A DNA stretch of 64,000 nucleotides from Candidatus Spongiisociaceae bacterium (lineage in GTDB: Bacteria > Actinomycetota > Acidimicrobiia > Spongiisociales > Spongiisociaceae): NCBI GenBank assembly GCA_965219685.1, contig CBDCOH010000002.1, positions 4,160,001 through 4,224,000 on the forward strand, in the 5' to 3' direction. Position numbers and translations under genes: made by a program. Below the pieces are notes generated by a model. The model made no database searches. It worked only from the letters and a program-made list of their open reading frames with translations, and was not told where the DNA came from. Shown one piece after another: positions 31,249-58,169 of the stretch. How positions within the stretch are numbered: position 1 is the stretch's first letter; each line of letters starts with the position of its first letter.

Positions 31249-31313
31249 TTTACAATAATATCACATATTTAGCAGAGTATCTTATGGCTAACTTACGCTC
31301 AGACGGGTAGAAT
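31249..31313 (+). promoter_or_regulatory. Four-box element copy 1 (orphan, no intact gene downstream)
   Basis: TTTACA/ATCACA/CTTATG/CTTACG at offsets 0/11/32/43, TAGAAT at +59. Confidence 0.7.
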
Positions 31314-31609
31314 GGGTGAACTCTCGGGCACCTATCTGGACTGTTCTCGACACCGGCGCGGGTATGGATCTAAACAGATAGGTGCCCGACGCCACGAGCT
31401 CGATTAAGCCTGGATCCACCGATCCGGCTGGTGGGCGGCGGGTTGGTTCTGGTTGTGCTCGGTATGGAGTGGGTTCAGCAGAGTTGGGGAAGAGAGCGGA
31501 GGTTACCGAGGGTGGTCAGGTAGATGTTGGCCCAGGCCCAGCGGGTGGGTAGGCGAAGGATGTGCCGAAGAGGCGGGTGCGGCCTACGATTAGGCGGAGT
31601 TTCATTCTC

Positions 31610-32170
31610 TCGATGTCCTCGACCGTCTTCTGTCGCCCGCTGGTTCACCGAAGGCTGGACTCTGGTTCGGCGGGAACTGCATCGCCGCCCCCTAGATCAG
31701 CGTCCCCCGATATATGAGCCGGATCTGTTCCGAGCCCGCTTCACGTTTTCCTGCGGCGGAGGATCATCTCAGCTCCACCCACCAGGACCTGGGGCGGCTG
31801 TTCGATGCTCATCCACGGCTGCGAACCGCCTGAGACGCGCTCCGGGAACACTACCAGTTCTACGAAGCCGAAGACCTCGAGGGCGCCAACCAAGCGCTGG
31901 GACGGTTCGCCGACTTCTTCGCTACAGGCCAGATCCCCGAATACCACCAAGTGACACCATCATCGCGTGGGGAGAAGAGATCCTGGCCTACCACAGCAGC
32001 AGACGAGCATCCAATGGACCGATCGAGGGGATCAACGACCTCCACCCGGTCCTACGCGACGTCGCTCACGGGTTCACCAACACCAACAGTTCCGCAGCCC
32101 GAGGACTCCTCGTAACATAACCCCCACACCGACAACAGCGCCCAATACCCAACGAAATCGCGCAGCTTCG
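31610..32170 (+). mobile_element. ISL3-family transposase relic
   Basis: Fragments …LVRRELHRR…DLFRARF, HPRLRTA*DALRE and WGEEILAYH…ASNGPIEGIN…VAHGFTN (ISL3 C-terminal motif), with a stop and frameshifts. Confidence 0.75.
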
Positions 32171-32182
32171 CTTATTGTCGGC

Positions 32183-32310
32183 CTAGGCGTCCATTAGTTC
32201 GCGGCGGCGTTGCAGGAGGTCGCTTCTCGCATATGCCTGCTCGGCGGAGGAACCGACCGGATGCGCGAGGCATGCTTCTGCTACTTCGCGGACAGTGCCT
32301 GTGAGACGCT
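32183..32310 (-). pseudogene. Tyrosine integrase C-terminal relic (P4-like)
   Basis: REVAEACLAHPVGSSAEQAYARSDLLQRRRELMDA matches the box-II LAH…AY(catalytic Tyr)xRSDLLxRRRxLM end of phage integrases. Confidence 0.7.
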
Positions 32311-32523: not shown

Positions 32524-32588
32524 TTTACAGTAATTTCATATAGATTGCCTATGATCTCATGACTATCTTATGCTGACGTTTGTCGGGT
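32524..32588 (+). promoter_or_regulatory. Four-box element copy 2, upstream of the giant SLH gene
   Basis: TTTACA/TTCATA/CTCATG/CTTATG at 0/11/32/43. Confidence 0.72.
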
Positions 32589-32790
32589 AGCAGAGTTTCG
32601 AGCATGATTTGGATCAAGGCCGGTGCGGGTCCGGTGTGAGTATGGATTGGGCCAGCGGGTTCCGGCGGAGGAGGGTCCCCGGAAGCGGACAAGTGGGGCA
32701 GCCCGGCATCCTCCAGAGATTCACCGGGACCTCGCAGGCGTCACATCTGGCTCAGGCCGACGGGCCACTGGAGAGGCAGAGATCCGGGAA

Positions 32791-35700
32791 ATGGGCGAGC
32801 AGTATCGGGCTTCTAGACGGGATGACAAAGCGACGTGCTCGGTGACTGTTCTTCGGGTTGTGGCGGTCGCGGCGGTGATCTCCGCGGCGGCGGTCGCCGC
32901 GACGGCGCAGAGCGGGACTGTGCCCGATGCGCCGCAGGGGCTTGCGATCTCCGCGGTCTCCCATGATTCGGTGACGCTGTCATGGACCGATCCGGGGGAC
33001 TCTTCCATCACGGGGTACCAGGTTCTTCGCCGCAACCGCGCGGTGCAAGCTGCGGGTGTGTTCGAGATCATCGATGACGCGGTGCCCGCCAACGCCACCA
33101 GCTACACCGATATGCCTGTTGAGGCATCGACCCGGTACGCGTACCGGATCAAGGCCCGCAACGCGCATGGGCTCAGTGGGTGGTCAGCGTGGGTCCGGGC
33201 GGACGTCCCCGAGCCCGCTCCCGAGCCCGACCCGTCCGTGACAGAGGCTACCGTACGAGACTCTGTTCTGCGCCAGGTCGCGGCTGCTCCGGTGATCACG
33301 AGTCTGGGCCCGTTCGCGGTGGATGAGGGCACGACTGCGGTGGTGACGCTCACCGCTTCTGATGACGACACCGCGGTTGGTGATCTGGTGTGGTCCAAGG
33401 CGGGGGGCGCGGATGCCGACGTGTTCACGTTGAGTTCATCGGGTGTGTTGTCGTTCGGTTCGGCCAAGGACTTCGAGGATCCTGACGATGACGACGCCGA
33501 CGGCGCCTATGAGGTGACGGTGCAGGTCAGCGACGGCGACAACAAGGTGACCGCTGCGGTGTTGGTGTCGTTGGTGAACATCGTTGAGTTGACCGCGATC
33601 GATGGGCCCACGGCTGTGACCTTCGAGGAGAACAGCTGGCTGCGGGTGGCGGAGTTCACGGCGTCCTCATCGCAGGACCGCGATGGGGTCTCTTGGACTT
33701 TGGGGGGCGCTGACTCGTCTCATTTGAGGATCGATGAGCCTGCGGGGGTGCTGCGGTTTGATCTTGATGCGGTGTCGCCGTCTGTGGTGTCGAAGCCCCC
33801 GGACTTCGAGGCGCCGGTGGATGCCGGCGCCGACAACGCGTATGTGGTGACGCTCACGGCCAGGGTGGGATCCGACACCGGCACGCCTTTGAGCGTGACG
33901 GTGACGGTGTCTGATGTTGACGAGCCCGGCACGGTGTCGCTGTCGACGAAGCGGCCCCGCACCGGCGTGGCGGTCACCGCGACGCTCGCTGATCCCGACG
34001 AGGTCACCAGCGGGTCGGAGACGTGGGTTTGGGAGCGCAGCGGCGCCTACGACGAGTGGATCGAGATCGCGGGTGCGACCGCCTCCAGCTACACGCCGGT
34101 CGCGGCCGACGCGGGCAATTTCCTGCGGGCCAGCGTCACCTACAGCGACCGCCACGGCAGCGGCGCGTCGGCCCAGGCCACCGCGCCCGAGGTGGTGGCC
34201 GCGGACCAGTTGAACGCGTTGGCGGTACGCACCAACGACTCTGCCGCGTCCTCGGACACGGAGCCGTGGCGGTTGATGCGGCCGTTGTTCGACGCGGCCA
34301 CGCTGCACTACTCGGTGGGCTGTGGCAGCCCTGACTTGATGACGCTCAGGTTCAGCCCCGCCGACGGGTCGAGCCGGATCTCGGTCGACGGCGTCCAGCA
34401 CGCCAACCCCGGCGCGGGCAACTCGACCACGGCGACGGTCTTGGTAACCGGCGACAGCGTCGTGGACGTCGTGCTGGCCGGCGCCGACGGCGCATACACC
34501 CGGTACGCCGTGCACTGCCTCGCCGAGAGCATCCGCGAGATCACACTCACGAAACCCCTCGGAGAAGCCGAGGTCCTCGACGAGCTGATGCTCTTCTTCA
34601 TCACACCGCACCTGGTGATCGTCGACAGCAACGGCGTCCCGCGCTTCCAGCGCCATCCGATCGCCTCCGCGGGGCCCTACTTCCGGTTCTATCCCGACGT
34701 CAACGGCGAGCCGCGCTACTCCCACAACGAGCCCGGCCGGGACTTCGTCATCCTGGACGGCAACTTAGACCGAGTCGACTCACCCCACACAGTCGCGCCC
34801 CTGACCCGTCACGACAACCACGACTTCCGGGTGCTCGACAACGGCGACTACATGCTGATGGCCTACCAGGACACCGAACGCGACCTCTCCCATCTGACCT
34901 TCACCGACAGGAACGGCGACCCCTTCGGGACCGACGTGTACGTCGAGGACTCTGTCATCCAGATCGTCACCCCCGGTGGCCGGGCGACGTTCAACTGGAA
35001 CTCGTGGGACCATATGCCGCTGGAGGACTGCGCGCAGCACTTCTTCCCGCCCGGCCGCGGCAGCTGGGCACATGTGAATGCCATCCAGTACGTGGACGAT
35101 GTGATCGTCGCGTCAATGCGGGGCTGCTCGCGGGTGCTGGCGATTGACGTCGACACCGGTGATGTGGTGTGGAGGGTGGGTCCCTCCAATCTCAGCACCG
35201 CCGAGTGGGCCGAGCGCGGCATCGGACCGCCGCCGCTGGACATCATCGGCGACCCGGCGGGCCAGTTCTGCGGACAGCACGGGTCGACGCTGCTGCCCGA
35301 CGGCAACCTGATCCTCTACGACAACGGCGTGGTGTGCACGATCGATCCCTGGACGGGTGAGACTCTTGTCCGGACGAACGAGGAGTACAGCCGCGCCGTC
35401 GAGTACGCTCTCGATCTCGACAACGGCGAGGCGGTGTTCGTGCGCGACCACTCGCTGCACGGCACCGAGTCCGAGGTTGGCTACCGGGGCGGGCACGTCG
35501 AGGCGCTGAGCAACGGCCATTGGCTCATCAGCTGGGGCAACAAGCATCCAACGCGCGACGATCCCCCGGAGCCGTCCGATGTATTGACCCAGGTCGACCC
35601 GGACACCGGCCAGGAGTGGCTCTCGGTGGACGGGCTCAGACGCGGGACTCGGGCCACCGTCATGCGGCCTGAACAGTTGTTGAGGGCCCGCCCGGCGCTG

Positions 35701-38700
35701 GAGGCCCGTTTTGTGGACAGCACCTACACGTCGGTGTTCCACACCGGTGCAGGGGACGCCCCTACGGTGGTGGTGGCGTTCAACCGTCCGGTGGCGGACT
35801 TCGCGGCGTCGTCTGCTTCGCTGAGTGTTCGGGGCGCGTCGGTGACCAGCGTGGCGCCCCATGTGGTGGCCGGGGAGCCCGCCAACGCGTACCTGGTGAC
35901 CCTGGCTCCCGACGGGCCCGGCGCCATCACGGTGAGGGTTGTTGCCGGCAAGGCGTGCGATGCCGGCGGGGTCTGTACTGCGGACGGAGCCGAGGTGGAG
36001 ACGGTTCCTGAGGCCTGGGTGATCAGCCCGCCGATCAGCGTGTCCTTCGGGGCCGGTTCCTATTCGGTGCGTGAGGGCGCCGCGCTGTCGGTGCCGGTGG
36101 TGTTGAGCGGAGCCCACGGCAGCCCAAGTCCCATAGACGTGCTGTTGGTCGCGTCGGCGGTGAGCGCCTCTGCGGACGACTTCTCGGTGCCGTCCAGTGT
36201 GAGCTTCGCGGCGGGCGAGACCCGCAAGTCGGTGTCCTTCGATGCGGCCGACGACGAGGTGGTGGAGGGCGCCGAGACGGTCGAGTTGAGCCTCGTCGCG
36301 CTGCCGACGGGTCTGATGGCTGGTTCGAACCAGACGACGACGATCACCGTCGCCGATGCCGACACGGCTGCGATCAGATTCGACGCTGCGGTCAGCGAGG
36401 TTGCTGAAGGGGGCCAGGTCGAGTTGACGTTCGCCATCACCAACGGTGTCGTCTTCGCAGCCGATCAGTCCATCAGCATCGAGGTCTCCGGGTCGGCGAC
36501 AGCCGGCGACGACTACGAACTGGTGGGCTCGCGGGGCCAGACGCTGTCGGCGCCGTACTCGGTGACGCTGGCGGCGGGAACGAACTCGCTCACGGCCACA
36601 TTGAGGGCGTTGGACGACTCCGATGCCGAACTGGCCGAGACAGTGTCGCTGAGCGCCCGGCTCGTCTCCACCGGCGCGCTGATCGGAGCGCGCACGGTGA
36701 CCGTCAGTCCCAGCGACCTGGACGCTCCCGAGGTCGAGATCGCCCAGGACGGTGCGGTGACCGAGGGCACCGAAGCGGTGTTCACCCTGACGCGCACCGG
36801 GACCGCCGGCAGCCCGCTGAGCGAGCCGCTCACCGTGCGGGTGCAGGTGACGGCCGCCGGCGGGGTCCTGCAGGGTGTGCCGCCGTCGACAGTGACCTTC
36901 GCCGGCGGCGCCAACACCGCCGAGCTGCGGGCCGCGACCGCCGATGACGACATCGTCGGCGACACAGTCACGGTCACCGCGCTGGTGCTGGCAGACAGAG
37001 CCAACCCTCCGGCGTACCTGACCGGCCCGTCCAATCACGCGACGGTTACCGTGCAAGACGACGACGCTGCAAGTTTCGCGGTGTCCGCATCCGCCAGCAC
37101 CATCGTCGAGGGCACCGACACGACGGTCACGATCGACACCGGCGGAACCACCTTCGCACAGGCCCAGACCATCAGCATCATCGTCGGCGGCAACGCAACC
37201 GCAGGCGACGACTTCGTGTTGACCGACACCGGCGGGCACCAGATCCAGGCGCCGTATGAGCTGGTGCTCGCGGCCGGCGCCGCGTCCACGAGCCTGACCG
37301 TCGCAGCCGCAACCGACGAGGCCAACGACAGCGGCGAGACGGTGGTGCTGTCGTTCCGCCACGACGGGAACTCCATCGGGACGGTCACCATCACCGTGGA
37401 CGACGTCAACCAGCGACCGGTGGTGGCCGGCGGCCGCTCGTTCTGGTACGCGGAGAACGACACAGCGACCGTGGCCGAGTTCACCGCGACCGACGCCGAG
37501 GATGACACGATCACATGGTCTCTCGGCGGCGCCGACGGCTCCCTGTTCACCATCGCCGGCGGCGAGTTGCGGTTCTTGGCGCCTCCGGATTTCGAGACGC
37601 CCGCAGACGCCGGCGCCGACAACTTCTATGACATCGTCGTGGAGGCTTCCGACGCCGGCGGCACGGCGGGCCGCGACGTGACCGTGACCGTCACCAACAT
37701 CGACGAAACCGCGACCATCACCAGCGACTCGGGCTCCTTCGCCATCAGCTACCCCGAGAACGCGGCCACCGATGTGGCTTCCTTCACCGCCGACGATCCC
37801 GAGAGCGCCAGGATCAGGTGGTCGCTCGGCGGCGACGACCGCGACGACTTCGAGATCGACGACGGTGGCGTGCTCAGCTTCTCGAGTCCGCCCGACCATG
37901 AACGCCCCGACGACGACAACGAAGACAACCAGTACCGGTTACAGGTCCAGGCCAGAGCAGGCGCGAGCGCCCCGGTGGCCGAGGCGGTGACCGTCAGCGT
38001 GAGCAATGTGGAAGAGCCCGGGGTCGTGCGTCTGTCGTCCCTGAGGCCCCAGGCGGCCACCGCTCTGACCGCTTCGCTCAGCGACGACGACGGCGTGTTG
38101 GCGGTACTGTCATGGACCTGGCAGCGCTCCCTGGCCGGTGGACCCTGGACAGATACCGGCAACGCCGCCACCTACACGCCAGCGGACGCCGACGTGGGCT
38201 ATGACCTACGGGTCGAGGCCACCTACCGAGACGGCGCCGGTTCGGGCACCGACAGCGCCAGCGCACACGCCGAGCACCCGGTGCGGGCCGCGCCGCTCAC
38301 CAACAGCCCGCCCACCTTCACCGGCGACGCCGCCGAACGCTCCATCGTGGAGAACTCACCCGCAGGCACACCCGTCGGCACAGCCGTCGCAGCCACCGAT
38401 CCCGACCCCGACGACCGCAACAAGCTCACCTACAGCATCTCAGGCACCGACGCCGATCTGTTCAGCATCGACGGAGCCACCGGACAGATCCGCGTCGGGT
38501 CGGGGACAGTGCTCGACTACGAGACCACCACAGGCCCCTACTCGGTCACCGTCACCGTCGCCGACCCCTCAGGCGACACCGACGACCAGCCCGTCACCAT
38601 CGAGGTGACCGACATCAACGAAGCACCCGAAGCGCAACACGACACCGCCACCACCTCCGAGGACACGCCCTTAAACATCACAGTGCTCTCCAACGACACC

Positions 38701-41302: not shown

Positions 41303-44300
41303 ATGGTTGATGGCCTTGGCATGTTGTCGGCTCTCCGGTGGGGGTGGCGTGGTGCCGCGGGTGTTCCGGGCGGGTGCGTGGGTCTGCTGCTGTTGGCGAT
41401 GTTGTTGGTGCCGGTCCCTGCCGCGGGGGGTAGCGGTAGTGTGCCGGCGCGGCCGGCACGGCCTGCAGTGACCGCGGTTTCTCATGATTCGTTGACGTTG
41501 TCTTGGGCTGATCCCGGAGATGGGTCCATCACGGGTTACCAGATTCTGCGTCGTAGCCCCGACACTGACGTAGTCGGGGTGTTTGTCGTTGTTGAGGATG
41601 ACACCGCAACGGCGGCTACTACCTATACAGATGTCACTGTGGAGGCGTCGACGTCGTATGTATACCGAGTCAAGGCCCGCAACGCCCACGGGTTGAGTTT
41701 GAGGTCGGGGTTCAGCCGGGTTACCACTCCCGCTGCCCCGTCACCGGTGACCGAGACGGAGACCGATTCGGTGTCGGCGCGTTCTGTTCGGCAGGTCATT
41801 GGCAGTTCGTTGAATCAGCCGCCGGAGTTCCCGGCGACCGAGACCGGTGACCGCAGCGTGGCTGAGAACACGTCGGCTGGGTCTGATGTAGGTGTTCCGG
41901 TCGCGGCTACCGACCCCGACAACGACTCCCTGACCTACTCGCTGGGCGGCACCCATGCCGACGTTTTCGACATTGTTGCCTCTACCGGCCAGCTTCGTAC
42001 CAAGGCAGCGCTGGACTATGAGACAGCCTCGAGCTATTCGGTCGAGGTCGAGGTCACCGACGGCAAGGACGCTTCCGGTTCGTCGGATGACACTATCGAC
42101 GACACGATCGAGGTGACCGTCGCTGTTGACAACGTTGACGAGCCCGGGACGGTGTCGTTCGCTCCGGCCGAAGCCCGGGTTGGAGCGGTGCTCAGAGCCT
42201 CGCTCAGCGACCCGGATGGGCCGACGAGCGTGCGTTGGACATGGCATACCTCCGATGACAAGGTCGACTGGGACCAGATCAGCGGCGCTTCGTCCCATAT
42301 CACGCCGGGCGACGCGGTCGAGGGCAAGTGGCTGAGAGCGAGCGCCGCTTACAGCGACGGCGCGGGCGGTGACAAGACCGCGCAGGGGGTGACGGCTGAT
42401 GTTGTGGCCGTTGAGGAAGCCTCCCCGAAGCTGGTGGTTGAGACGCTCGTGAGGGACGGTATCAAACATCCCTGGGGTATCGCGTTCACGCCCGACTCCA
42501 CGATGCTGTTCACACAGCGGGAGGGTGTGATCAATGCCCGGCTGGCCGACGGGACGCTCAAGACTGTAACCGCGGACTTCTCGGACCTGTATCTCCACCT
42601 CAAGGTCGGACTCATGGCGATAGTCGTGGATCCCGACTTCGCTACCAACCGGCGCTTTTACACCTGCCAGGGTCATACCGGGATGACCGTGCAGGTGATC
42701 GCTTGGACCATCGACGGGGACTACTCGGCGGCGACCCGAGTCAACGACCCGCTCGTCGGGGGTATCGAGACCGACACCCAGCACAGCGGCTGCCGGCTGC
42801 GTTTCGGTCCGCAGGGACACCTGTGGATAGCGACCGGTGACGGCCGCGTGGCGACGGGGCCGCAGGACCTGACATCGCTGGTCGGGAAAGTCCTGCGGGT
42901 GGACTCCATGACGGGCAACGCGCCGGACTCCAATCCGATCGCAGGGTCCCGGGTCTACACCTACGGCCATCGCAACCTTCAAGGGCTGGCTCTGCGGCCA
43001 GGGACGGACCAGATGTGGTCCGTCGAGCACGGTCCGGAGCGCGACGACGAGATCAATCTGCTCACTCCGGGCGGAAACTACGGCTGGAACCCGACCCGCG
43101 ACGGAGAGAACTACACCGAGGACGTCCCGATGACCGACGTCTCCAAGTTCCCCGACGCGGTGCAGGCAAAGTGGTCCTCGGGCCTGCCGACTCTGGCCAC
43201 CTCCGGCGGTATCTTCCTCGAGGGTTCCCAGTGGCGCCACTGGGAGGGCCGGCTGGCGGTGGCCACACTCAAGAACCAGACCCTGCGAGTCTTCGAGTTC
43301 GACTCCGACGGCACGCTGCTGAGCGAGGTGGTCCCGCCCGAGCTCAACAAGACGGGCCAGCGTCTACGGACGCCGATGATGGGTCCCGACGGTGCCCTGT
43401 ACATCGCCACATCCATCACCACCGACGACAAGATCCTGAAGGTCACCCCGCTGTGGCCGCCCGAGTTCGAGTCGGACACCGCCGTCTTCATGGTGCCCGA
43501 GGACGTAGGCACTGCCGATGTCGTTGCAACCGTCGAGGCCACCGACGACAACCCCAGCAGCCTCAGGTACAGCCTGAGCGGTCCCGACGCGGCCTCCTTT
43601 GCTATCGCCGACGACACGGTCGGCAAGTTGACGCCCGCCACGGAACTGGACCACGAGGGGAAAGGCTCGTACGAGGTGACGGTCATCGCGATCAACGGCA
43701 ACCGCCTCAGGGCAAGAATTGCGCTCACGATCATCGCTACCAACGTTGAAGAGCCGCCAACCGTGGACGGTCCCACCGAGGTGACCTACCCGGAGGGCTC
43801 CACGGACGATGTGGCCGTATACACCGCGTCGGATCCCGAGGACGGGGAGCTTCCGGTAACGCTGAGCGGTGCGGACAGCACCTTGTTCACCCTCGACGCC
43901 GGGACGCTGAAGTTCAAGGCGCCGCCCGACCACGAGCAGCCCGGCGACTCGGGCCGGGACAATGACTACAACCTGGTGGTCGAAACCTCCGACGGTGCCA
44001 ACACCGTCGAGCGCGCCGTGACGGTGACCGTAACCGACGTGGACGAGCCGCCAACTCTGGACGGTCCCACCGAGGTGACCTACCCGGAGGGCTCCACGGG
44101 CGATGTGGCCTCCTACACCTTTGACGATCCTGAGGAGAGAACGGCTCAGTGGTCGCTGTCGGGTACCGACCGTCAGAACTTTGGTCTCTCAGGCGGTGTG
44201 CTCTCCTTCGTGGTCTCTCCCGACTACGAGAACCCCCACGACTCCGGCAAAGACAACGACTACGAAGCGGTAGTGCGCATCCTCGACGGGCCTCACACCG

Positions 44301-48108: not shown

Positions 48109-48327
48109 CGCGAACCGAACCTGACATGTTTGTATCGACGGCATCGTCCGTCTCCCGAACCGAGAACCACTAACACTGGAACCCGCTCACACCCACCCAA
48201 GACAACTCGGCGCTTTGTTCCACCAAAGCGTCCACCGAAGCGGGCCAACCGCAACTAGTTCTCGACGCTTTGGTATGGCCGTGATCACTAGCAGTGTTCG
48301 ACCGGGTGGTCCTCCACACGTGGCAGC

Positions 48328-50859
48328 TCATCCCTTTTCGCTTCTTGGGGTTCCTCCCGCCTGTATCCATACCGGCTTTGAGTCAAGGCCGGTGGTGAGT
48401 TGTTCGGGATTCTCGCCGTCGAATCCCATAATCCAAATCCCGTGTCCGGGCTCCAACTCGATGGTGTCCGATCTGGATCCTCCATAATCACCGTAGATAT
48501 AACTAGTAGCGTGCCCGTAGACCATGCGGGTGCCGTCCGGCGACAAAACGCTGCCAGCAAACCAAAAACGGTGATCCGTTATCTTCTGTTGGGTGCCCGT
48601 GTTCACATCCACGAGGTAGAAGTTAATGCCGTCGTTGTAGACGAGGCGAGAGCCATCCGGTAGCCATTGCAGATCCCTCGGATCTCTCTCGGGTGTTGCT
48701 ACTTCTCGGTTGTAGTGACCGTCAGCGCTTATGACATAGATCGATTTCCAATCGTAGGTATATGCGAGGAGAGTGCTGTCCGACGACCACGCAATGGAGC
48801 TTATAGGTCCGCTTGCTATTTGCTTTTGGTTCTCCCCACCGGGTCCTGAAACGAAGATACCATGGCTACCGCTGTTTGTGTACGCGAGGCGGCTACTGTC
48901 GGGTGACCACGCTGGGCGATCGGCGTCATAGATTAGGGTTCGGGTACTGTTGTCCGGATCGATGATGACGATGGTGGAGTGGTCCTGTACGTATGTAAGG
49001 TACCTACCGTCGGGAGACCACAGGGGAGTAGGTACCCATCCACAAGCGCCAGCAGCCAGGTATTGTCTGTTGGTGCCGTCAGCCTCGATAAGGTACAGTG
49101 ATCGCCCGTCGTTGTAGGCAATTCTGCTGCCGTCCGGTGACCAGGCAGCCCGCTCTACTATCTCCCGAAGAGTCTTCAACTCGGGGTCATCGGTAGTGTC
49201 CGCCGTCAGAGAAGCCAAAGGCTGTACATTGCCGCCGTCGGCGTTCATCACCAGAAACTCGACCTCGTCGCTGCCTACATAGGCGACTTGTGTACCGTCG
49301 GGAGACCAGGAAGGGTCATGGCCGTGCCATGTGAGTACTCGCTGGCCGGAACCGTCCAACTCCGTCACGAAGATCCCGGGATCCGTCACGCCGTGGCTGT
49401 AGGCGATGCGAGTACTATCGGGCGACCACACCGGTCCCTGATCTCGCTCGTCGGACGTGAGCTGTTTACGGTTGGTACCGTCCGGGTCTATTACATAGAT
49501 TCCCGGGTCTCCGACATAAGCGATCCGGCTACCGTCGGGGGACCACACCGGGTTCCTGCCGTTATCGGCTAGTGTCCTTCGATGATTACCATCAGCATCC
49601 ACCACCCAGACCTCGGACAGTCTGTCCTGGAACTTGCCCGGAGAGTAGGTGACTCCATAGACGAGACGGTCACCGTCAGGGGACCAACGCGGGCTGTAAC
49701 CCTTGTCGGACACCTGCCTCTTCCCGGTGCCGTCACCGCTCATCACCCAAATAGATCCATCATCTGAGGAGTGCGCACCGGCCGTGGCAAAAGCGATCCG
49801 GGTACCGTCGGGAGACCACACCGGACTCAGACCCCTGAACCAGCCCGTTTCAGGACGATACACCGGGCCTTCGACCAGCGGCCTCCTGCCCGTGCCGTCC
49901 GTGTTGACAAGCCACACCTCAGATGATGCCGCAACATAAACAAACCTGGTCCCGTCCGGATGCCAAACCGGGTGGAAACCCCCATCAGAAGTGACCTGGC
50001 TCCGGTCTGTTCCGTCAGCACCCACCACCCTGATCCCATCGTCACGACCACCGTGATACGCGATCCGGGTGCTGTCCGCCGACCATACCGGGTTCCAACC
50101 CACATGGTCAGTCAGCCGCGTCGGGTTCGAACCATCCGCGTTCATCACCCAAATCTGTCTACCAACCGTGCGGCTGAAAGCGATACGCGGCTCCGGTGGC
50201 ACATATTCACGGGCTCGGTTGAGGAAGGACGACATCTGTGCTCGGGTCACATCCCCACTGGGGCAGAACCGGGCCGGCCCCGTACCACAACCCTTCGTGA
50301 CCCCGGCAGCGGCCAACGCGTTGATCCCAGTTGTGTGGACACTGCCCGCGATGTCTACGAACCCTGCGTCCGGTCCCGAAGCGAGATCGAACGCTCGACT
50401 CAAGAACGTCGCCATCTGCGCCCGGCTCACGGAATCCAGCGGACAGAACCGGGCCGGACCGCTGGCACAGCCTAAGGTAACCTCCAAATCAGCTAAACGT
50501 TCCACATAAGGCGCCCACCACAAACCAGCATCCACATCCGCGAACCGTGACGAACCCGAACCAACCGGGTCCTCACCGTCCAGAACCCGAACCAGCCACA
50601 CCGCCATCACCCAACGCTCAACCGGATCCCCCGGACAGAACCGATCCGTACCACACTCGGTACCCTCAAACACCCCATCAGCCGCCAGAGCCCGAACAGC
50701 CCCCTCATGAACACCCGCCTCGGCAACATCAGAGAACCCGTCCAAAGCCTCCGCCACGGACCTACCAGCACCCACCGACAACACAACCACCGACAACACA
50801 AGCACCCCAACACCCAAGAACCGCCCGACGGGCCGAACCCTCACGTCGAGCCCACCCAC
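48328..50859 (-). CDS. N-terminal SLH plus TolB/PD40-like beta-propeller repeat surface protein
   Basis: SLH repeats followed by more than ten PxWSPDGxRIAY repeats. Confidence 0.87.
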   Translation of the reverse strand: MGGLDVRVRPVGRFLGVGVLVLSVVVLSVGAGRSVAEALDGFSDVAEAGVHEGAVRALAADGVFEGTECGTDRFCPGDPVERWVMAVWLVRVLDGEDPVGSGSSRFADVDAGLWWAPYVERLADLEVTLGCASGPARFCPLDSVSRAQMATFLSRAFDLASGPDAGFVDIAGSVHTTGINALAAAGVTKGCGTGPARFCPSGDVTRAQMSSFLNRAREYVPPEPRIAFSRTVGRQIWVMNADGSNPTRLTDHVGWNPVWSADSTRIAYHGGRDDGIRVVGADGTDRSQVTSDGGFHPVWHPDGTRFVYVAASSEVWLVNTDGTGRRPLVEGPVYRPETGWFRGLSPVWSPDGTRIAFATAGAHSSDDGSIWVMSGDGTGKRQVSDKGYSPRWSPDGDRLVYGVTYSPGKFQDRLSEVWVVDADGNHRRTLADNGRNPVWSPDGSRIAYVGDPGIYVIDPDGTNRKQLTSDERDQGPVWSPDSTRIAYSHGVTDPGIFVTELDGSGQRVLTWHGHDPSWSPDGTQVAYVGSDEVEFLVMNADGGNVQPLASLTADTTDDPELKTLREIVERAAWSPDGSRIAYNDGRSLYLIEADGTNRQYLAAGACGWVPTPLWSPDGRYLTYVQDHSTIVIIDPDNSTRTLIYDADRPAWSPDSSRLAYTNSGSHGIFVSGPGGENQKQIASGPISSIAWSSDSTLLAYTYDWKSIYVISADGHYNREVATPERDPRDLQWLPDGSRLVYNDGINFYLVDVNTGTQQKITDHRFWFAGSVLSPDGTRMVYGHATSYIYGDYGGSRSDTIELEPGHGIWIMGFDGENPEQLTTGLDSKPVWIQAGGTPRSEKG

Positions 50860-51068: not shown

Positions 51069-51133
51069 ACTCTACAAGTCTATAAGTAAGCTGTGCGTGA
51101 GATCCTCGGCTATACGTATGATATTAGTGTTAA
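51069..51133 (-). promoter_or_regulatory. Four-box element copy 4, upstream of the SLH-PD40/SLH-CAP pair
   Basis: Minus strand TTAACA/ATCATA/CTCACG/CTTACT at 0/11/32/43, TAGAGT at +59. Confidence 0.72.
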
Positions 51134-51709: not shown

Positions 51710-51906
51710 ACTCCCCGATCTTCTCCCTCTCCCGTAGCCGGTTGGCCTGCACCAGAATGCGGTACCGGCAAGATCCCGGATGAAATCTCAGGCCGCAGGG
51801 CTGCCGCTACCCCGTAGGGTCCCCTGAACCCTCCTTCCGCCGAGCACCACTCGCTCTGATCCATACCCGCACCGGGCTCAATCCGAATGATGCTCCAAAC
51901 TCCGCT

Positions 51907-51971
51907 ACCCTACAAACTTCAATATAAGATAGCCGTGAGGCAGACAGCCATCTATATGATATATCTATAAA
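51907..51971 (-). promoter_or_regulatory. Four-box element copy 5
   Basis: Minus strand TTTATA/ATCATA/CTCACG/CTTATA at 0/11/32/43, TAGGGT at +59. Confidence 0.72.
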
Positions 51972-52065: not shown

Positions 52066-54450
52066 TCATCTTGCGGGCAACTCGGGGGTGTTGCCCTTGG
52101 GCATGCGGTAGCCGACGCGTAGTTCGGTGAAGATGTAGGTTGGGTTCTCAGCATTGTCGCCCAGTTTGCGCCGCAGGCTGCTTATCGCGGTACGCATGGG
52201 TCGTATGTCGGCGTCGGCGTCGAGTCCCCAGACCCGTCTGAGTAGGTGCCGGTAGGTGAGGACGCGTCCTGCGTTGGCCGAGAGTTCCGCGAGGGTTCGG
52301 TACTCGATGGCGGTTAGTTGGACGGGCTGGTCGGCGACGCTTACACGGCGTTCGGTGTAGTTGATGGTCAGGTCCTCCAGGACGTACGTCTGTGTGGGCT
52401 GGGGTGTGTGCTGTCTGCGTAGGCTTGCTCTGATACGGGCTGCGAGTTCTACTGGTGAGAATGGCTTGACGATGTAGTCGGCGGCTCCGGCATCGAGGGC
52501 GCCGGCGACGAGTTGGTCCTGGCCGTAGGCTGATAGGAAGATGACCGGCAGGTCTGCGGTGGTCGTGATCTGTTTCATCAACTCGATTCCGTCGGTGCCC
52601 GGCAGCATTAGGTCGAGGAGGACGAGGTCGGGGTTCTTGTCGTGCACGAGGGGTAACGCTTCGGCTGGGTCGGTCGTGACGATGGGTGTGTAGCCCGACT
52701 TGGTGAGGGCTTGTTGGACGTATCTGAGCGTTTGGGGGTCGTCGTCGACCGCTAGTACCCGTGTCTGCTCTTCGGTCTGCTGTGCCGAGGAGGGGGTCGG
52801 TGACGGAACGGCCGCCAGGGGAGAGACGTATCCGGCGTCTTCGATTGTGGGGATGGTAAAGGTGAACTTCGCACCGAGTCCCGGGCCGTCGCTGTCGGCC
52901 CAGATGCGGCCTCCGTGGGCTTCGACTATTCCCTTGCAGATCGCAAGGCCTAGGCCGGTGTCGCCTCTCTGGTCGTCGGTGTCTATGCGGGAGAACTTCC
53001 GGAACAGGTGGGGCAGGCTCTCTGCGGGGATGCCACTGCCCTCGTCCGAGATCGATACGGCCACCTGCAGGTCTTCGCGGGTGGCGGCTAGCTGGATGGG
53101 GGACTTCTCGGGGGAGTTCCTGGCGGCGTTGGCCAACAGGTTGGCCAGCACTTGGATCATGCGGGGCCGGTCGGCCATCACCCAGGGAAGATCCCTCTCC
53201 AGGTCGGCGTCGATCCGGTGCCTGCCTCCGCCGCTCCGGAACGTGTTCCTGGCTTCGCCTATCAGCGTGGCGATGTCGGTGGGTTCAGGAGAGATCGCCA
53301 GGGTGCCCGTCTCGATGCGGGCCACGTCGAGCAGGTCGCTGATCAGCACGTGCATCCGGTCGATCTGGGCATTGATGATCTTGAAGAACTGGCGCATCTC
53401 GGTAGGACCCAACGCGTTGGGCGGGTCCAGCAGGGTCGCGATCGAGCCCTTGACCGACGTGAGCGGCGTGCGCAGTTCGTGGCTCACCATCGCCAGGAAC
53501 TCGGCCCGCAGCCGCTCCAGCTCGTGCAGCTGGGTCAAGTCCTGGAGGGTCACGACGAAGGACTCGGTCTGCCCGTCGTCGGAGCGGATGGGTGTGGCGT
53601 TGACCAGCGTAGTGACGCTTCGGCCGTCGGGGACCCTCATGACTATCTCCTCGGCCCGTACCGTCTCACCCCAGCTCAGCGCCTCGGCTATCGAGAACTC
53701 CTCGAGCGAGACCTGCCGACCGTCGGCTCGGACGACGGTCATCACGTCCAGGAGGTCCTCCGGTGGCCGCCCCGGTGTTCGGAGGCCGTCGAGGATTCTC
53801 ACGGCTTCCGGGTTGAACGACACCGGTGCTCCGGTTCTGGCGTCGAGGACGGCGACCCCCACAGGTGAGGTGTTGATCAGTGTCTGGAGGTCGGTTCTCG
53901 CCCTCTGCTCGTCGCGGTACCGGCGGGCGTTGGCGATGACGAGCGCTGCCTGGGAGGCGAACATCACCAGGACTTCCTCGTCTTCCTGGGTGAAGTCCTG
54001 TCCCCTTTCCTCCCTCCCTACGTAGATGTTGCCCACTGGTTCTCCCTGGTGGCGGATCGGCGCGGTCAGCAGCGGACCGACCGCCATGGGGAGAACGTCG
54101 GGAAGCCCGACCGAGGAAAGGTGGTGGCGGGAGTCCCCGACCCGTAGCGGCCGCTCCAGTCCGCTGAGGTATTCGAACACCAGCAGGCCTTCGGGCGGGG
54201 AGTCGTCTAGGGTTTGGCGGTGGTCGGGTGAGATGCCGGAGGTCACGAAGTCGGGCGGTCTGCCCGACCCGTCCAGGGTAGTGATCACCCCGTAGCGCGA
54301 GTCCGTCAATGCTCGGGCGGACTCGACGACTTCCTTGAGCACGGTGTCGAAGTCGAGGCTCTCGTTGATACGCAGGCTGGCTTCGGACAGCCGGGACAAC
54401 CGATCCCTCAACGCCCGTATCGCCACGTCCCGGGGGTCGTCTGGGTTCAT
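52066..54450 (-). CDS. Single-chain hybrid regulator: GAF-PAS-HisKA-HATPase-receiver-OmpR-type winged-helix DNA-binding domain
   Basis: VSHELRTPLTS (H-box), LANLLANA, DEGSGI, GLGLAICKGIVEAHGG, AVDDDP…LLDLMLP…YIVKPFS, LTAIEY…LRRKLGD…YIFTELRVGYR. No TM segment visible. Confidence 0.92.
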   Translation of the reverse strand: MNPDDPRDVAIRALRDRLSRLSEASLRINESLDFDTVLKEVVESARALTDSRYGVITTLDGSGRPPDFVTSGISPDHRQTLDDSPPEGLLVFEYLSGLERPLRVGDSRHHLSSVGLPDVLPMAVGPLLTAPIRHQGEPVGNIYVGREERGQDFTQEDEEVLVMFASQAALVIANARRYRDEQRARTDLQTLINTSPVGVAVLDARTGAPVSFNPEAVRILDGLRTPGRPPEDLLDVMTVVRADGRQVSLEEFSIAEALSWGETVRAEEIVMRVPDGRSVTTLVNATPIRSDDGQTESFVVTLQDLTQLHELERLRAEFLAMVSHELRTPLTSVKGSIATLLDPPNALGPTEMRQFFKIINAQIDRMHVLISDLLDVARIETGTLAISPEPTDIATLIGEARNTFRSGGGRHRIDADLERDLPWVMADRPRMIQVLANLLANAARNSPEKSPIQLAATREDLQVAVSISDEGSGIPAESLPHLFRKFSRIDTDDQRGDTGLGLAICKGIVEAHGGRIWADSDGPGLGAKFTFTIPTIEDAGYVSPLAAVPSPTPSSAQQTEEQTRVLAVDDDPQTLRYVQQALTKSGYTPIVTTDPAEALPLVHDKNPDLVLLDLMLPGTDGIELMKQITTTADLPVIFLSAYGQDQLVAGALDAGAADYIVKPFSPVELAARIRASLRRQHTPQPTQTYVLEDLTINYTERRVSVADQPVQLTAIEYRTLAELSANAGRVLTYRHLLRRVWGLDADADIRPMRTAISSLRRKLGDNAENPTYIFTELRVGYRMPKGNTPELPAR

Positions 54451-54563: not shown

Positions 54564-54623
54564 TTTATAGCCATTTGATATAGATTGCCAGTTACCTCAT
54601 GGTTATCTTACATTAACGCTTGT
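54564..54623 (+). promoter_or_regulatory. Four-box element copy 6, truncated, divergent from and upstream of the regulator
   Basis: TTTATA/TTGATA/CTCATG/CTTACA at 0/11/32/43; the downstream leader is missing. Confidence 0.7.
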
Positions 54624-57593
54624 TCGGGTGATGTCGAGACTGTATGTCTTGCGGGTGGTGGCATCCGCCGAGATCACGGTCATGTGTACGGTGGTGACCG
54701 ACGGCGCCGCGTCGAGTTCGATCTGCCAGATGGTGGTGATTCCTGGAACGATCCGCTTGACCTCGATGGGCTGATCGTTGGCTGTGACCTGCACCGTGGC
54801 CTCTCCGGACGAGGCTTCGAGATACAGGTCCACGTGATCGACCGAGGGGCCGACTGTTCCCGAGTATGACGTTACGTGTCGTTCGAAGCTCGGTGCGAGA
54901 TCGAGGAGGGTCGGCGCGGACATGCTTGCCAGGTCGGCATCATCGTCGTCGGACGGGGCAACACGCGTGACATCAATCGTGTACTCGCCTACCGCACCGT
55001 CGTTGGCGAGGACTTCCACCGTGATCGGTGTGGTCGTGGCTCGCCCGTCGAGCCCGATCGCACCCAGCGCAACCTGGTGTCCTAGCGTATTCGGGTCGGC
55101 ATCAGCCGGGGAGATTGCCACCACGGCACCGGATTCGGGGGTGGTCGCCGCCACGGTCACCTGGGATCTTGTGGTGGGCACTATCGCCTTGTAGGAGACG
55201 GCGGCCGGGCTGAACAACCGGTTCAGCGGGACTCCATCGAGGCTCAACGAGTCGAGCGTCGCCACCCGGACGACCGACAACTGGTAGGTGCCCGTGGTGC
55301 CGTCGCTGCCGCTGACCGAGATGTACAGGGTGCCGGCCCCGCCGGACCCGATTATGAATCGGCTGTTGGCGCCGGTCCCGCTGTCGTCATCGGTGGTCCT
55401 CGGGATCGGACTGCCGGTGGCGTCGTACACGCCGATCAGCATCGGGTCGCCAAGAGTGCCGTCGCCGCTGGGTTCGCCCTTCACGTCGATAGCGAAGTGG
55501 TCGTTGCCGGCGGGAAGGGTAACGGCGAACCAGTCATGGTCGCCGGGGAAGTCAATCGATCCCTCCGAGTGAGTGCCGTCGGCCGTGACGGTGGCCGTCG
55601 TCGTGGTGTCTGCGGGGTAGTCATTGAACAACGCGACGGTGTAGTCGACAGTACTCAGCCCGCCGGGCTCGGACACGCTTACGGTGAGATCGGTAACGCC
55701 CTGCTGCGGCACTTCGACCTGGTGGCCGGAGGCGTTGGTGTCGGCGTCGGTGGGCGAGATGGACACCTCAAGCGGAGGAGACGCCGTCTCGGGCGTCGCT
55801 TCCACCGTCACGGTCCCCGCGGCATGGTCCATCCGGTAGGCGAACCTCGCACTCGGATAGAGCGACGGGACCGCCGCGCCATCGATGGTGAGGGTGCTCA
55901 GGCGGGGGCCCCGCACCGGCTGGGAAGTGAGGGTGATGCTGAGTTCATACTCGCGCTGACGCCCGTCCCTGCTGAAGTGCTGGACCAGCTCGAGCACATA
56001 CGGCCCGGCATCGAGCGTGGCATCGATCCCCGGCACGGGCGAGCATGGATACTCGAAGAACCCGCACAGGTGGCCGCTGCGGTGGTCGGGGGCGTGCATC
56101 ACGTGTCTGATCTCGGTGCCGTCGGGGGCGCGCAGGACGTAGTGGTGGGCGGTGGGGAACTCCGTCAGCCTGATGGCGACATCGCTGGTGTCGGCGACAT
56201 CGAAGCGGTAGAAGCGAGCGTATCCCGTCGTCCGGTACCCGGGCAGCGCATTCCGGTCGTCCTTGTAGGTGAGGATCGACCGGCATGCCGGTCGCCACCT
56301 GCCGCTTGCGGTAAGTGTGGCGCCGTTCGCGGTGAGCTCGCGGAGGTTGCAGCCGTTGGGCAGTTCCACCGTGACTTCTCGTGCTACGTCGGGTCCGGGG
56401 ACGGTCACCCGGGGGTGGTTGCGGACCTGACGTCCGTCCGGCGCGCACACCGCGGCGGGTTGAGCGCAGTCCGCGGCAGGGGGCAGCGCAACCGTGATGT
56501 CGTCGTTCCCGGCGGGCTGCGCCCGGATAGTCCACGAGCGGGTGCCGGAGCCAGTGGCGCGCACATCGATAAGGGTGGCGCCGGTGACCGTCAGCGCGTG
56601 GTCGCGTAGCTGCTGAGCGCTGACCGACAGGCCTTCCTCGTCGAGCACGAACTGCAGCTCGAAGGGCGTCGTGCCGTCGTGAGAGTCGGGCACGCCGGAG
56701 AAACGCGCCGACGGCGGCGCCGGCGCGCGGCCGTCCAGAGATCCTGAGCCCTCGAACGCGAGCGACACATGCACCGAACCGCCCGGCTCGCCCAGCACGC
56801 CTTCGGACGGCCACCAGAACGCACTCGCCGTCGCGATCCAGGGGCGCAGGCTCTCGCTGCCCACGAACTTCGTGCCGCCCACCGACAGCACGAAGTCAGC
56901 GCTCAACTCCGAACGCAATGCGAAGTACAGGCCGCCCGCGTGCTCGATCAGCACCAGCACCTGCACCGATGCGCCGTTCACCTCGAAACGGTCCGGCGAC
57001 AACGAGCCCGATCCCGACCATCGCGAGTACCCCGCCGTCGCCGGAACCGAAGACCCATCGCTGCCCACCGACAGCACCGCGGTCCATACGGGTCCGGGTT
57101 CGGGTTGGGGCTCGGGCGCGGCCGGAGTGTTGGCGCGAACGAACCGCGAGCGGGTGCTGAGCCCGTGCAGGTTGCGGGCCTTGATCCGGTAGACGTAGCG
57201 TGTGGATGCTTCGACGGTGGTGTCGGTGTAGCTGGTGGCGTTGGCGGCGACGGTGTCGTCGATGATGTCGAACTCGCCTGCGGCTTGCGCGGCGCGGTTG
57301 CGGCGGAGGATCTGGTAGCCGGTGACCGAGGAGTCTTCCGGGTCGTTCCATGTCAGCGTCACCGAGTCATGGGCGACCGCATCAACCACCAGTCCCTGCG
57401 GGGCGTCGGGTGCGGTCCCGGTCTTTGTTGCTGCGGCGACTACTGCTGCTGTTACCAGTGTCACGAGGGCAGCGATGAGGAGTACGGTCATCGAGCGCGC
57501 GGTCAGGTTCGCGGGTCCGGATCCCGGGATGGTCGGATGAGGGCTGGTGTCTAGGGTCTTGTCTGCTCTGCGAGCATGACGGTGCTTGCCCAT
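54603..57593 (-). CDS. Secreted FN3 / Ig-like / cadherin-like beta-sandwich protein without SLH
   Basis: Signal peptide, FN3 very similar to that of 32791, PPC-like DHDWFAVTL segment, three cadherin-like beta-sandwich repeats (ATLDSLSL…VTVAAT…YTIDVTR). Start chosen at the conserved leader ATG. Confidence 0.8.
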   Translation of the reverse strand: MGKHRHARRADKTLDTSPHPTIPGSGPANLTARSMTVLLIAALVTLVTAAVVAAATKTGTAPDAPQGLVVDAVAHDSVTLTWNDPEDSSVTGYQILRRNRAAQAAGEFDIIDDTVAANATSYTDTTVEASTRYVYRIKARNLHGLSTRSRFVRANTPAAPEPQPEPGPVWTAVLSVGSDGSSVPATAGYSRWSGSGSLSPDRFEVNGASVQVLVLIEHAGGLYFALRSELSADFVLSVGGTKFVGSESLRPWIATASAFWWPSEGVLGEPGGSVHVSLAFEGSGSLDGRAPAPPSARFSGVPDSHDGTTPFELQFVLDEEGLSVSAQQLRDHALTVTGATLIDVRATGSGTRSWTIRAQPAGNDDITVALPPAADCAQPAAVCAPDGRQVRNHPRVTVPGPDVAREVTVELPNGCNLRELTANGATLTASGRWRPACRSILTYKDDRNALPGYRTTGYARFYRFDVADTSDVAIRLTEFPTAHHYVLRAPDGTEIRHVMHAPDHRSGHLCGFFEYPCSPVPGIDATLDAGPYVLELVQHFSRDGRQREYELSITLTSQPVRGPRLSTLTIDGAAVPSLYPSARFAYRMDHAAGTVTVEATPETASPPLEVSISPTDADTNASGHQVEVPQQGVTDLTVSVSEPGGLSTVDYTVALFNDYPADTTTTATVTADGTHSEGSIDFPGDHDWFAVTLPAGNDHFAIDVKGEPSGDGTLGDPMLIGVYDATGSPIPRTTDDDSGTGANSRFIIGSGGAGTLYISVSGSDGTTGTYQLSVVRVATLDSLSLDGVPLNRLFSPAAVSYKAIVPTTRSQVTVAATTPESGAVVAISPADADPNTLGHQVALGAIGLDGRATTTPITVEVLANDGAVGEYTIDVTRVAPSDDDDADLASMSAPTLLDLAPSFERHVTSYSGTVGPSVDHVDLYLEASSGEATVQVTANDQPIEVKRIVPGITTIWQIELDAAPSVTTVHMTVISADATTRKTYSLDITRTSVNVR

Positions 57594-57668
57594 ACTCTCG
57601 GACCTCTGTCTCTCCCGTGGCCGGTTGCTCCGTGCCACATGTGGTGTCGGCGGTATTCGGGGCGTCCC

Positions 57669-57734
57669 ATTCTATCTAAGGTAGTATTAGTTATTCATGA
57701 GATCTTGCATCTAGTAGTATTAGATTACTATGAA
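57669..57734 (-). promoter_or_regulatory. Four-box element copy 7
   Basis: Minus strand TTCATA/CTAATA/CTCATG/CTAATA at 0/11/33/44, TAGAAT at +60. Confidence 0.65.
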
Positions 57735-58104
57735 GTCCCGGCGCGGTCGGGTTGTACGGCGGACTATCACAGGGCCGGTCCGGCGTCGGAGGGTAGACCG
57801 CACCCCGGAACGATCCAGGATGCCGATTGCAAGGGGAGATTGTGGAGACGCCACACGGTCCCCGCTGGCTTGAAGAGGGATACTGCGGAAGAAGACCCGT
57901 TGGGATTGAGGCTTGGGCCGGCGCGGTCGGTCCGGATGTGGCCTCTGTCTCGGGACTCGACGGCGGCGACGACACACGTCCGATGCGTACCTCGATAGGC
58001 GGCCTGCCGGCGCAACCAGGGCGACAACGCCGAGAGCCAACCTAACGTCTGTTACAGCCCGGATCGGGACGTTGGCTGGGGTGAAACCAGCCGTTTCGGT
58101 AGAG

Positions 58105-58169
58105 TTTATAGAAATTTGATATCAGTAGCTCATTATCTTATGACAATCTTACGCTAACGCTTGTGGCAT
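58105..58169 (+). promoter_or_regulatory. Four-box element copy 8
   Basis: TTTATA/TTGATA/CTTATG/CTTACG at 0/11/32/43. Confidence 0.72.

Follow-up and report, generated by a model that had tools for sequence, protein, structure and literature searches.

An AT-rich four-box promoter module repeated across a surface-protein gene cluster, and a fused KdpE-like regulator as its candidate reader

Direct repeats phased at 11 bp are a hallmark of OmpR/PhoB-family operators. In the pho box, through which PhoB gives class II activation of promoters that lack a good -35 element, the 11-bp direct repeats end ~10 bp upstream of the -10 element, and OmpR at ompF and ompC occupies tandem direct-repeat sites of unequal quality, located upstream of or abutting the -35 element, in a hierarchical order of loading. 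Here we analyzed a 64-kb stretch of contig CBDCOH010000002.1 (the window; 65.3% G+C), in which a 27-kb surface-protein gene cluster holds eight copies of one AT-rich four-box promoter module (~60 nt, 67% A+T). The cluster also encodes a protein of 794 residues in which kinase, receiver, and winged helix-turn-helix (wHTH) domains are fused. Judging from the sequences, we put at about 0.5 the probability that the eight copies are promoter-operator modules of one regulon and are read by this fusion protein.

In the part of the report by Narayanan et al. that deals with its operator, Escherichia coli KdpE binds two 6-bp direct repeats, TTTATA and TTTACA, with 5 AT-rich bp between them, as defined by electrophoretic mobility shift assay and ultracentrifugation, and R193, R200, and T215 are needed for DNA binding (PMC3264566). 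The present locus resembles KdpE/kdpFABC in the type of half-site, in a receiver-wHTH half that is 38% identical to E. coli KdpE (85/222, E 1e-46), in the equivalents of R193, R200, and T215, and in a KdpD-like kinase core. In contrast to KdpE/KdpD, kinase and regulator form one polypeptide here, the input is GAF-PAS, there are four boxes instead of two, and the putative targets are surface proteins. Pfam detects no KdpD N-terminal sensor domain in the regulator, and neither Pfam nor NCBIfam detects a kdp gene in the window, so that adjacency to kdpFABC is not seen.

As in the PhoB/pho box system, an 11-bp-phased pair is located 10 nt upstream of a -10-like hexamer in four of the eight copies, and extra upstream pairs lie on the same face of the helix. 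However, the box sequence is a different one, the distance to the upstream pair is 32 bp instead of 22, the geometry is less clear in the other four copies, and there is no link to phosphate. Likeness to OmpR at ompF and ompC holds for an alternative promoter reading, in which a TTGNNN hexamer begins at index 56 (indices count from the first base of box 1); OmpR sites are contiguous 20-bp units, whereas the pairs here are parted by a 15-bp conserved linker containing T21 and G23. In the portion of the Streptomyces coelicolor work concerned with binding sites, many promoters carry arrays of 11-nt direct repeats to which PhoP, an OmpR-family regulator, binds (PMC2275107). PhoP has another repeat sequence, a classical two-protein system, and a variable repeat number, in contrast to the rigid four-box layout of the present module. 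For MtrA, an essential response regulator of actinobacteria, the NCBIfam model NF040689 ranks first on our regulator but scores below its cut-off (177 vs 300 bits), and the regulator is, in addition, fused to a kinase.

The hybrid two-component systems (HTCS) of Bacteroides have periplasmic sugar sensors and AraC-type outputs. According to the sections of two reports that describe their design, HTCS are transmembrane proteins that carry histidine kinase, receiver, and DNA-binding output in one polypeptide and control adjacent gene clusters (PMC11253607, PMC13292587). The regulator described here is like them in having HisKA, HATPase_c, Response_reg, and Trans_reg_C in one 794-aa chain, but it is soluble, its input is GAF-PAS, and its output is Trans_reg_C instead of AraC-type. 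By analogy, the cis-logic is the one known from KdpE, PhoB, OmpR, and Streptomyces PhoP, and the one-polypeptide design has its parallel in Bacteroides HTCS, with another sensor and another output.

The four-box module and its conservation

The eight copies are named here by the first base of box 1 and lie at 31249+, 32524+, 41045+, 51133-, 51971-, 54564+, 57734-, and 58105+, all of them where an earlier prediction on this DNA (the original prediction) had placed them. A hidden Markov model (HMM) was made from all eight copies, and the whole window was scanned with nhmmer --max. The copies and their scores are as follows.

31247..31297, plus strand: copy 1, four 8-mer units, HMM 50.4 bits
32522..32572, plus strand: copy 2, HMM 54.3 bits
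41043..41093, plus strand: copy 3, HMM 46.1 bits
51085..51135, minus strand: copy 4, HMM 47.3 bits
51923..51973, minus strand: copy 5, HMM 50.3 bits
54562..54612, plus strand: copy 6, HMM 49.4 bits
57685..57736, minus strand: copy 7, extra base between boxes 2 and 3, HMM 33.9 bits
58103..58153, plus strand: copy 8, HMM 51.0 bits

With scores of 33.9-54.3 bits, the E values of the known copies range from 1.3e-9 to 5.5e-16. The scan finds no ninth copy in the 64 kb (the next match has 3.8 bits, E 3.4) and none at all in the first 31 kb of the window. A 49-nt IUPAC pattern with up to two mismatches recovers seven of the eight copies and has no match in 100 dinucleotide shuffles. The copy missed by this pattern, 57734, is longer by a single base between boxes 2 and 3, which gives the offsets 0/11/33/44 that had been claimed for one copy.

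The layout of four units at offsets 0/11/32/43 is borne out by the likeness of the units to one another: inter-unit identity at these offsets is 0.586, a value reached by none of 123 random offset sets (mean 0.28, maximum 0.43). When copies are compared in pairs, the four hexamers have a mean identity of 0.747 and the spacers one of 0.524, while the 26 nt upstream reach 0.264, where 0.28 is random for the motif composition. A formal comparison thus finds stronger conservation in the boxes than in the spacers. All eight copies agree in 16 columns (indices 1, 3, 5, 10, 12, 14, 16, 21, 23, 33, 35, 37, 41, 43, 44, and 46), 12 of them inside the hexamers (hypergeometric p = 0.012). The spacers had been said to drift, but they are not free, since T10, T21, G23, and A41 are invariant too, T21 and G23 being in the linker between the two box pairs. 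The hexamer, given as about YTYAYR, is better written as an 8-mer, A-K-N-T-Y-A-Y-R, whose first base lies 2 nt upstream of the hexamer. Five of the eight copies have TTTACA or TTTATA as box 1, and the remaining three deviate by one base.

The motif is an element under position-specific constraint, made of direct repeats in 11-bp phase and placed at the 5' border of transcription units. Since the flanks are at random identity and the boxes are conserved, the pattern shows position-specific purifying selection and not recent duplication, and the randomized flanks indicate that the copies are old enough for unconstrained DNA to have lost its similarity. This bears on an explanation by descent alone, in which the copies are relics of a segmental duplication or of a mobile promoter cassette spread by insertion sequences (IS), with no common regulation. 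Fragments of IS21, ISL3, and IS3 transposases do adjoin copies 1 and 3, an IS3-type HTH_Tnp_1 fragment lying just upstream of copy 3; leaders and N-termini are shared within classes, and the pair of copies that enclose the regulator gene has the inverted arrangement of terminal repeats. A relic would, however, hardly account for the sharp edge 4 nt before box 1 (index -4), at which similarity starts in all eight copies and beyond which the flanks are random (0.264), or for invariant columns beside scrambled neighbors inside the module, which need selection. In addition, six copies are solitary and co-oriented with genes. We consider such an origin very improbable, and the module is with high probability a cis-regulatory operator-promoter unit.

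The fused regulator and its kinship to KdpE

The gene of the regulator lies inside the cluster, with all of its Pfam domains in one open reading frame (ORF).

52066..54450, minus strand: regulator, 794 aa

GAF (32-172), PAS (187-307), HisKA (315-382, with H324), and HATPase (427-535) domains are followed by an output half with a receiver (REC, 565-674, with D613 and K662) and a Trans_reg_C wHTH (708-783, with R753, R760, and T775). This is the cytoplasmic GAF-PAS-kinase-receiver-wHTH protein as it had been described: H324, D613, and K662 are intact, and the protein is soluble, with no hydrophobic or membrane segment (maximum 19-residue Kyte-Doolittle mean 1.39). The receiver scores 97 bits with Pfam Response_reg (cut-off 30.2), and alignment with KdpE and MtrA places its acidic pocket at D569-D571, its phospho-acceptor Asp at D613, and its conserved Lys at K662. 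The winged helix scores 63.2 bits with PF00486 (cut-off 26.2) and aligns over its full length to the structures of KdpE, MtrA, RegX3, and PrrA.

Against solved structures, the REC-wHTH part has KdpE as its top match (137.3 bits, E 5.9e-39) and MtrA as a near-equal one (135.8 bits, E 1.7e-38). The kinase core is 34% identical to KdpD residues 659-880, and the best places of the regulator in a plasmid collection include adjacent KdpD and response-regulator gene pairs (H2-H10, 39-41% identity); promoter and leader DNA has no match among plasmids. The similarity to KdpE and to the KdpD C-terminus, together with these adjacent pairs, suggests that the protein arose when a Kdp-like pair was fused. 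It is not an orthologue of KdpE, because the KdpE model PRK10529 gives 149.4 bits, far under its cut-off of 325. KdpE R193, R200, and T215 align with R753, R760, and T775 of the regulator; MtrA has N at the R193 position.

The boxes themselves lead to KdpE as well. The two-box pattern TTTAYANNNNNHTNAYA, taken from boxes 1-2, has nine matches in the window at up to one mismatch, all inside the eight modules (expected 0.43). Without mismatch it matches once in the 10.5-kb E. coli kdp locus, at TTTATACTTTTTTTACA (expected 0.03; 5/200 shuffles match), and this site is exactly the defined KdpE operator. The match is the strongest evidence that a KdpE-like winged helix may read the module, though it is not proof for this protein. 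A winged helix of the OmpR/PhoB family is the probable reader, and the fused kinase-regulator of the cluster would be the best single candidate for it, with the chances about evenly balanced.

Two motif copies, 51971 and 54564, flank the regulator gene as predicted, both oriented away from it. Copy 51971 is 95 nt beyond the stop codon, and copy 54564 is 114 nt upstream of the ATG, inverted relative to the gene. These outward-facing copies bracket a 2.6-kb segment that holds the regulator only, an arrangement that recalls terminal repeats, with no transposase there. A Pfam search of 10 main ORFs, 9 further ORFs, and 82 intergenic frames finds no second transcription-factor domain; the intergenic frames are 82 of 100 stop-to-stop frames of at least 45 aa, the 18 left out being mostly inside large genes or leaders. 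As candidates for other regulators, the intergenic frames yielded only IS21, ISL3, and IS3 transposase fragments.

By its relatives in sequence collections, the fused architecture defines a large conserved family and is not peculiar to this locus. At the level of 50%-identity representatives, 171,215 proteins match at E<=1e-30. Identity to the query within the family is highest in HisKA (0.84) and the winged helix (0.82) and lowest in GAF (0.51). One listed cluster (P0095) is named "Acidimicrobiia bacterium" at its source, the only listed regulator above 76% identity sits on a 29-kb ENA contig, and the taxonomic home of the family, judged from this one source name and from the gene order beside the cluster (see below), is probably Acidimicrobiia. 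A search of full-text literature, with subscription journals outside its coverage, gave no description of this protein family or of the motif. The term "candidate new system", used in the original prediction, is nevertheless too strong for a member of a large family whose cis-logic is of the known tandem-direct-repeat type.

Several observations weigh against the fusion protein as the reader of these modules. The strict form of the 49-nt pattern (17 fixed and 6 twofold positions) was scanned over 185,579 species genomes, a collection outside which the source genome falls, and is absent from them except for one match, located in Candidatus Brocadia pituitae AP021856.1 (L001 2001-2049) inside a 271-aa ORF in 44% G+C DNA; with 13.1 bits, compared to 33.9-54.3 for the genuine copies, we judged it to be chance and rejected it as a true copy. 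At the same time, at least 119 other 90%-identity clusters were listed that have the same domain set and 64-96% identity over 97-100% of the regulator length, and ~77 of the 150 listed 50%-identity representatives align with it end to end at 38-61% identity. The wHTH is one of the best-conserved parts (0.82), and family-wide specificity would predict related operators in many genomes. The absence of the motif elsewhere counts only weakly, given so strict a pattern and a collection that lacks the source genome. The KdpE-like label is not exclusive, as MtrA is near-equal in the PDB search and first in NCBIfam; half-sites of the form xTxAYA are common to many OmpR-family regulators, and the genome surely encodes others of these outside the window. 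The copy near the regulator start is inverted and has no leader, and its inversion means that simple pho-box-type autoactivation does not apply there. Four copies have no TANNNT at index 59, and three of the eight (31249, 51971, and 54564) head no intact gene.

Such points would suit modules that serve as the operator of another regulator, encoded outside the window and of OmpR/PhoB-family (perhaps a true KdpE or MtrA) or SARP-type, the fused regulator being present by coincidence or for another purpose. Its wide family, compared to a strict motif unseen in the genomes of other species, the generic nature of 11-bp-phased xTxAYA repeats together with the equal scores of KdpE and MtrA, and the wrong orientation for classic autoactivation of the copy upstream of the gene all fit this alternative. 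It has to contend, however, with the finding of no other transcription factor in the 34 kb that hold all eight copies, with motif copies on both sides of the fused regulator, and with the three DNA-contact residues that this protein shares with KdpE, matching the operator type of boxes 1-2. On balance we find a reader outside the window unlikely, although it deserves to be kept in mind, and continue with the fusion protein as the candidate reader.

Promoters, leaders, and genes of the cluster

A TAGAAT-type hexamer had been claimed exactly 10 nt after box 4 in four copies, and all four are in place.

31308-31313, plus strand: TAGAAT, copy 31249 (index 59)
51074-51069, minus strand: TAGAGT, copy 51133 (index 59)
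51912-51907, minus strand: TAGGGT, copy 51971 (index 59)
57674-57669, minus strand: TAGAAT, copy 57734 (index 60)

The tRNA-Leu gene is preceded by a similar GAGAATGG; GAGAAT upstream of this gene, at 29835-29840, provides a -10 reference within the window. In six of the eight copies TTGNNN is found at indices 56-61, and the six copies with a leader show, 17-18 nt after TTGNNN, a hexamer like CATCAT, CATGAT, or CACTAT (index 79). A second, candidate core promoter made of TTGNNN (index 56) and the CATCAT-like hexamer (index 79) would fit the copies without TANNNT better, and the four boxes would then all precede a complete core promoter, an arrangement seen where OmpR controls transcription. 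A generic sigma-70 scan of 12.8 kb found one site, inside the 54564 copy, compared to 2.5 expected, and is uninformative. These promoter elements also raise the question of whether the module could act without a dedicated activator, as an AT-rich UP-element-like or alternative-sigma core promoter or as a preferred site of a nucleoid-associated, Lsr2-like silencer of AT-rich DNA, with the boxes serving as promoter or curvature elements. A module of 67% A+T in a window of 65% G+C, boxes that could lie wholly upstream of a complete core promoter, and the generic sigma-70 site in copy 54564 are compatible with this. On the other hand, invariant T/A positions that alternate and are repeated four times at 11-bp phase go beyond AT-richness, box spacings of 11 and 21 bp are unlike -35/-10 geometry, and the single sigma-70 site is fewer than expected. 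An element without an activator seems to us improbable, and we return to a module with a dedicated reader.

Near the regulator, box 1 of copy 54564 reads TATAAACT on the regulator strand (reverse complement), a possible -10 element for this gene. The interval that separates the regulator from the 1011-aa ORF upstream of it holds no terminator-like site.

Past the boxes, ~60 nt are common to six copies and include an invariant GCGGGT with GGA ~15 nt before it. Their leaders are as follows.

31298-31420, plus strand: leader of copy 31249, class A
32573-32790, plus strand: leader of copy 32524 (~190 nt), class B
41094-41302, plus strand: leader of copy 41045, class A
50860-51084, minus strand: leader of copy 51133, class A
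51709-51922, minus strand: leader of copy 51971, class B
58154-58367, plus strand: leader of copy 58105, class B

Copy 57734 has a short leader that shares only the part next to the start codon, and copy 54564 has no conserved leader. Compared to shuffles, class-A hairpins reach z = -4.79 (31249), -2.16 (51133), and -1.01 (41045), which is significant in two of three. The leader of 31249 (31324-31389, plus strand) has a perfect 15-bp stem, TCGGGCACCTATCTG / CAGATAGGTGCCCGA, with a 36-nt loop, and 1/200 shuffles fold as well; the 5' arm of this hairpin is the part conserved in all leader-bearing copies. A stable structure was rejected for the class-B leader (58105, z = +1.38; 183/200 shuffles fold as well). 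With three sequences in each class, Alifold gives a few compensatory pairs, not enough to carry weight. Rfam gives no match to the leaders in the cluster at gathering score, and when 31000-59000 is searched at E<=1, the sole matches are to two families, eukaryotic or archaeal, at chance level and away from the leaders. The idea of an upstream ORF under conservation was also rejected, since the ATG in GGGTATGGA opens frames of very different lengths between copies. The leader conservation may represent core-promoter sequence, a 5' stabilizing stem, or a translational control element.

On the left side of the cluster, core genes occur in the order pth, mfd, mazG/yabN, eno, ftsB-like, and DUF501. 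The order pth-mfd-mazG-eno-ftsB-DUF501 is actinobacterial. The cluster itself codes for six large secreted proteins, in which Pfam finds SLH, FN3, cadherin, PD40, CAP, arylsulfotransferase, and glucose/sorbosone-dehydrogenase domains.

29850..29935, plus strand: tRNA-Leu(taa), left cluster edge
32791..40443, plus strand: giant FN3/arylsulfotransferase/cadherin/Calx-beta/SLH surface protein gene, start at conserved ATGGGC, headed by copy 32524
41303..45862, plus strand: FN3/cadherin/glucose-sorbosone dehydrogenase (GSDH)/SLH surface protein gene, headed by copy 41045
46261..48144, minus strand: SLH/Big_12/CAP protein gene, no motif of its own
48328..50859, minus strand: SLH/PD40 beta-propeller gene, headed by copy 51133
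54603..57593, minus strand: FN3/cadherin-like gene, headed by copy 57734, directly upstream of the regulator on the same strand
58368..63998, plus strand: SLH gene with an array of 15 FN3 repeats, headed by copy 58105, 3' end outside the window

Every surface-protein unit had been thought to have a copy. This holds for five intact genes, headed by 32524, 41045, 51133, 57734, and 58105, but the CAP-SLH gene has no copy of its own and three copies have no intact gene. The CAP-SLH gene sits 183 nt behind the PD40-SLH gene, with a terminator-like hairpin between them, and may either come second in the 51133 unit or form a unit of its own. As for the three copies, 31249 is an orphan with an ISL3 transposase fragment downstream of it rather than a surface gene. 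Copy 54564 has no gene downstream on its strand and is directed into the 3' end of the convergent 1011-aa ORF, overlapping its stop. Copy 51971 heads a frameshifted remnant, the N-terminus of which resembles the product of the gene at 58368; this remnant is a decayed paralogue that retains promoter and leader. In it (51328-51922, minus strand), the frame beginning MANQRRVR ends after ~56 codons and is followed by a 71-aa coiled-coil ORF (51546-51328).

The G+C content at third codon positions (GC3) of the large surface genes and the regulator is 0.78-0.84, the same as in the flanking core genes, and a foreign origin of the cluster was rejected on this ground. The two SLH genes at 46261-50859 (minus strand) have a GC3 of 0.65-0.66, below the other cluster and core genes (0.76-0.87), which hints at a different history of the PD40 and CAP SLH genes. 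Transposase fragments are of IS21 (IstB-like, weak; 30494-30646, minus strand), ISL3 (DDE; 31524-32120, plus strand), and IS3 type (HTH_Tnp_1; 40721-40990, plus strand). These fragments, and the start of the cluster right after tRNA-Leu(taa), indicate that the cluster was reshaped by insertion sequences. Outside the cluster, a SAM_alpha (SAM-II) riboswitch scores 42.5 bits with Rfam (gathering score 36) at 7478-7556 on the plus strand, directly upstream of a betaine-homocysteine S-methyltransferase gene (7551-8657), in a genome that looks actinobacterial and not alphaproteobacterial.

A model for the module and its meaning

In our model, each module presents direct half-sites in two pairs, phased at 11 bp and facing the same side of the helix, with an upstream pair TTTAYA-N5-NTNAYA and, 32 bp away, a weaker downstream pair CTYAYG-N5-CTYAYR. 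Each pair would be bound by two winged-helix domains of the OmpR/PhoB family, arranged as a head-to-tail dimer. Owing to its DHp (HisKA) domain, the fusion protein should be a constitutive dimer with two REC-wHTH arms. Upon sensing of a cytoplasmic signal by GAF-PAS, H324 would be autophosphorylated and the phosphate would move within the dimer to D613, leading to the pairing of REC domains. The wHTH arms might then occupy the KdpE-like upstream pair first and the downstream pair cooperatively. In the copies with a TAGAAT-type hexamer, the downstream pair would take the place of the pho box, ending 10 nt before the -10 element, substituting for a poor -35 element and recruiting RNA polymerase. 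Expression of the regulator could come from read-through of the 57734 promoter, from a promoter that overlaps the inverted 54564 copy, or from the two together, resulting in feedback, and the inverted 54564 module may act as an operator or as a roadblock on the read-through. The sequences themselves establish the motif with its constraint and its direct-repeat phasing, the domains, catalytic residues, and KdpE-like DNA-contact residues of the regulator, and the likeness of boxes 1-2 to the KdpE operator type. We infer the identity of the binder, activation as opposed to repression, the loading order, the transcription starts, and the signal. The fullest form of the model, a soluble one-polypeptide two-component system, derived as a KdpD/KdpE-like fusion and conserved class-wide (probably in the Acidimicrobiia), that is a master switch for SLH-anchored surface proteins through a rigid two-dimer four-box operator, is doubtful as a whole and offered tentatively. 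In that form, the protein would be the first counterpart of OmpR type to the Bacteroides hybrid two-component systems for which a regulon is defined, and a natural, self-contained module from sensor to promoter.

If another regulator binds the modules, the finding is that of an ordinary regulon motif. If the fusion protein does, the locus would provide a complete and unusually clean regulon for a large, uncharacterized family of one-polypeptide two-component systems, with one sensor-regulator, eight near-identical operators, and six envelope proteins. With its rigid layout and half-sites of graded quality, the operator lends itself to studies of how OmpR-family dimers load cooperatively, and the soluble kinase-regulator fusion with its 60-bp operator may be attractive as a compact, orthogonal sensor part. 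To our knowledge, the lineage, probably Acidimicrobiia, has almost no experimental genetics. For these bacteria, the regulon would show how the SLH-anchored surface layer of the lineage is switched.

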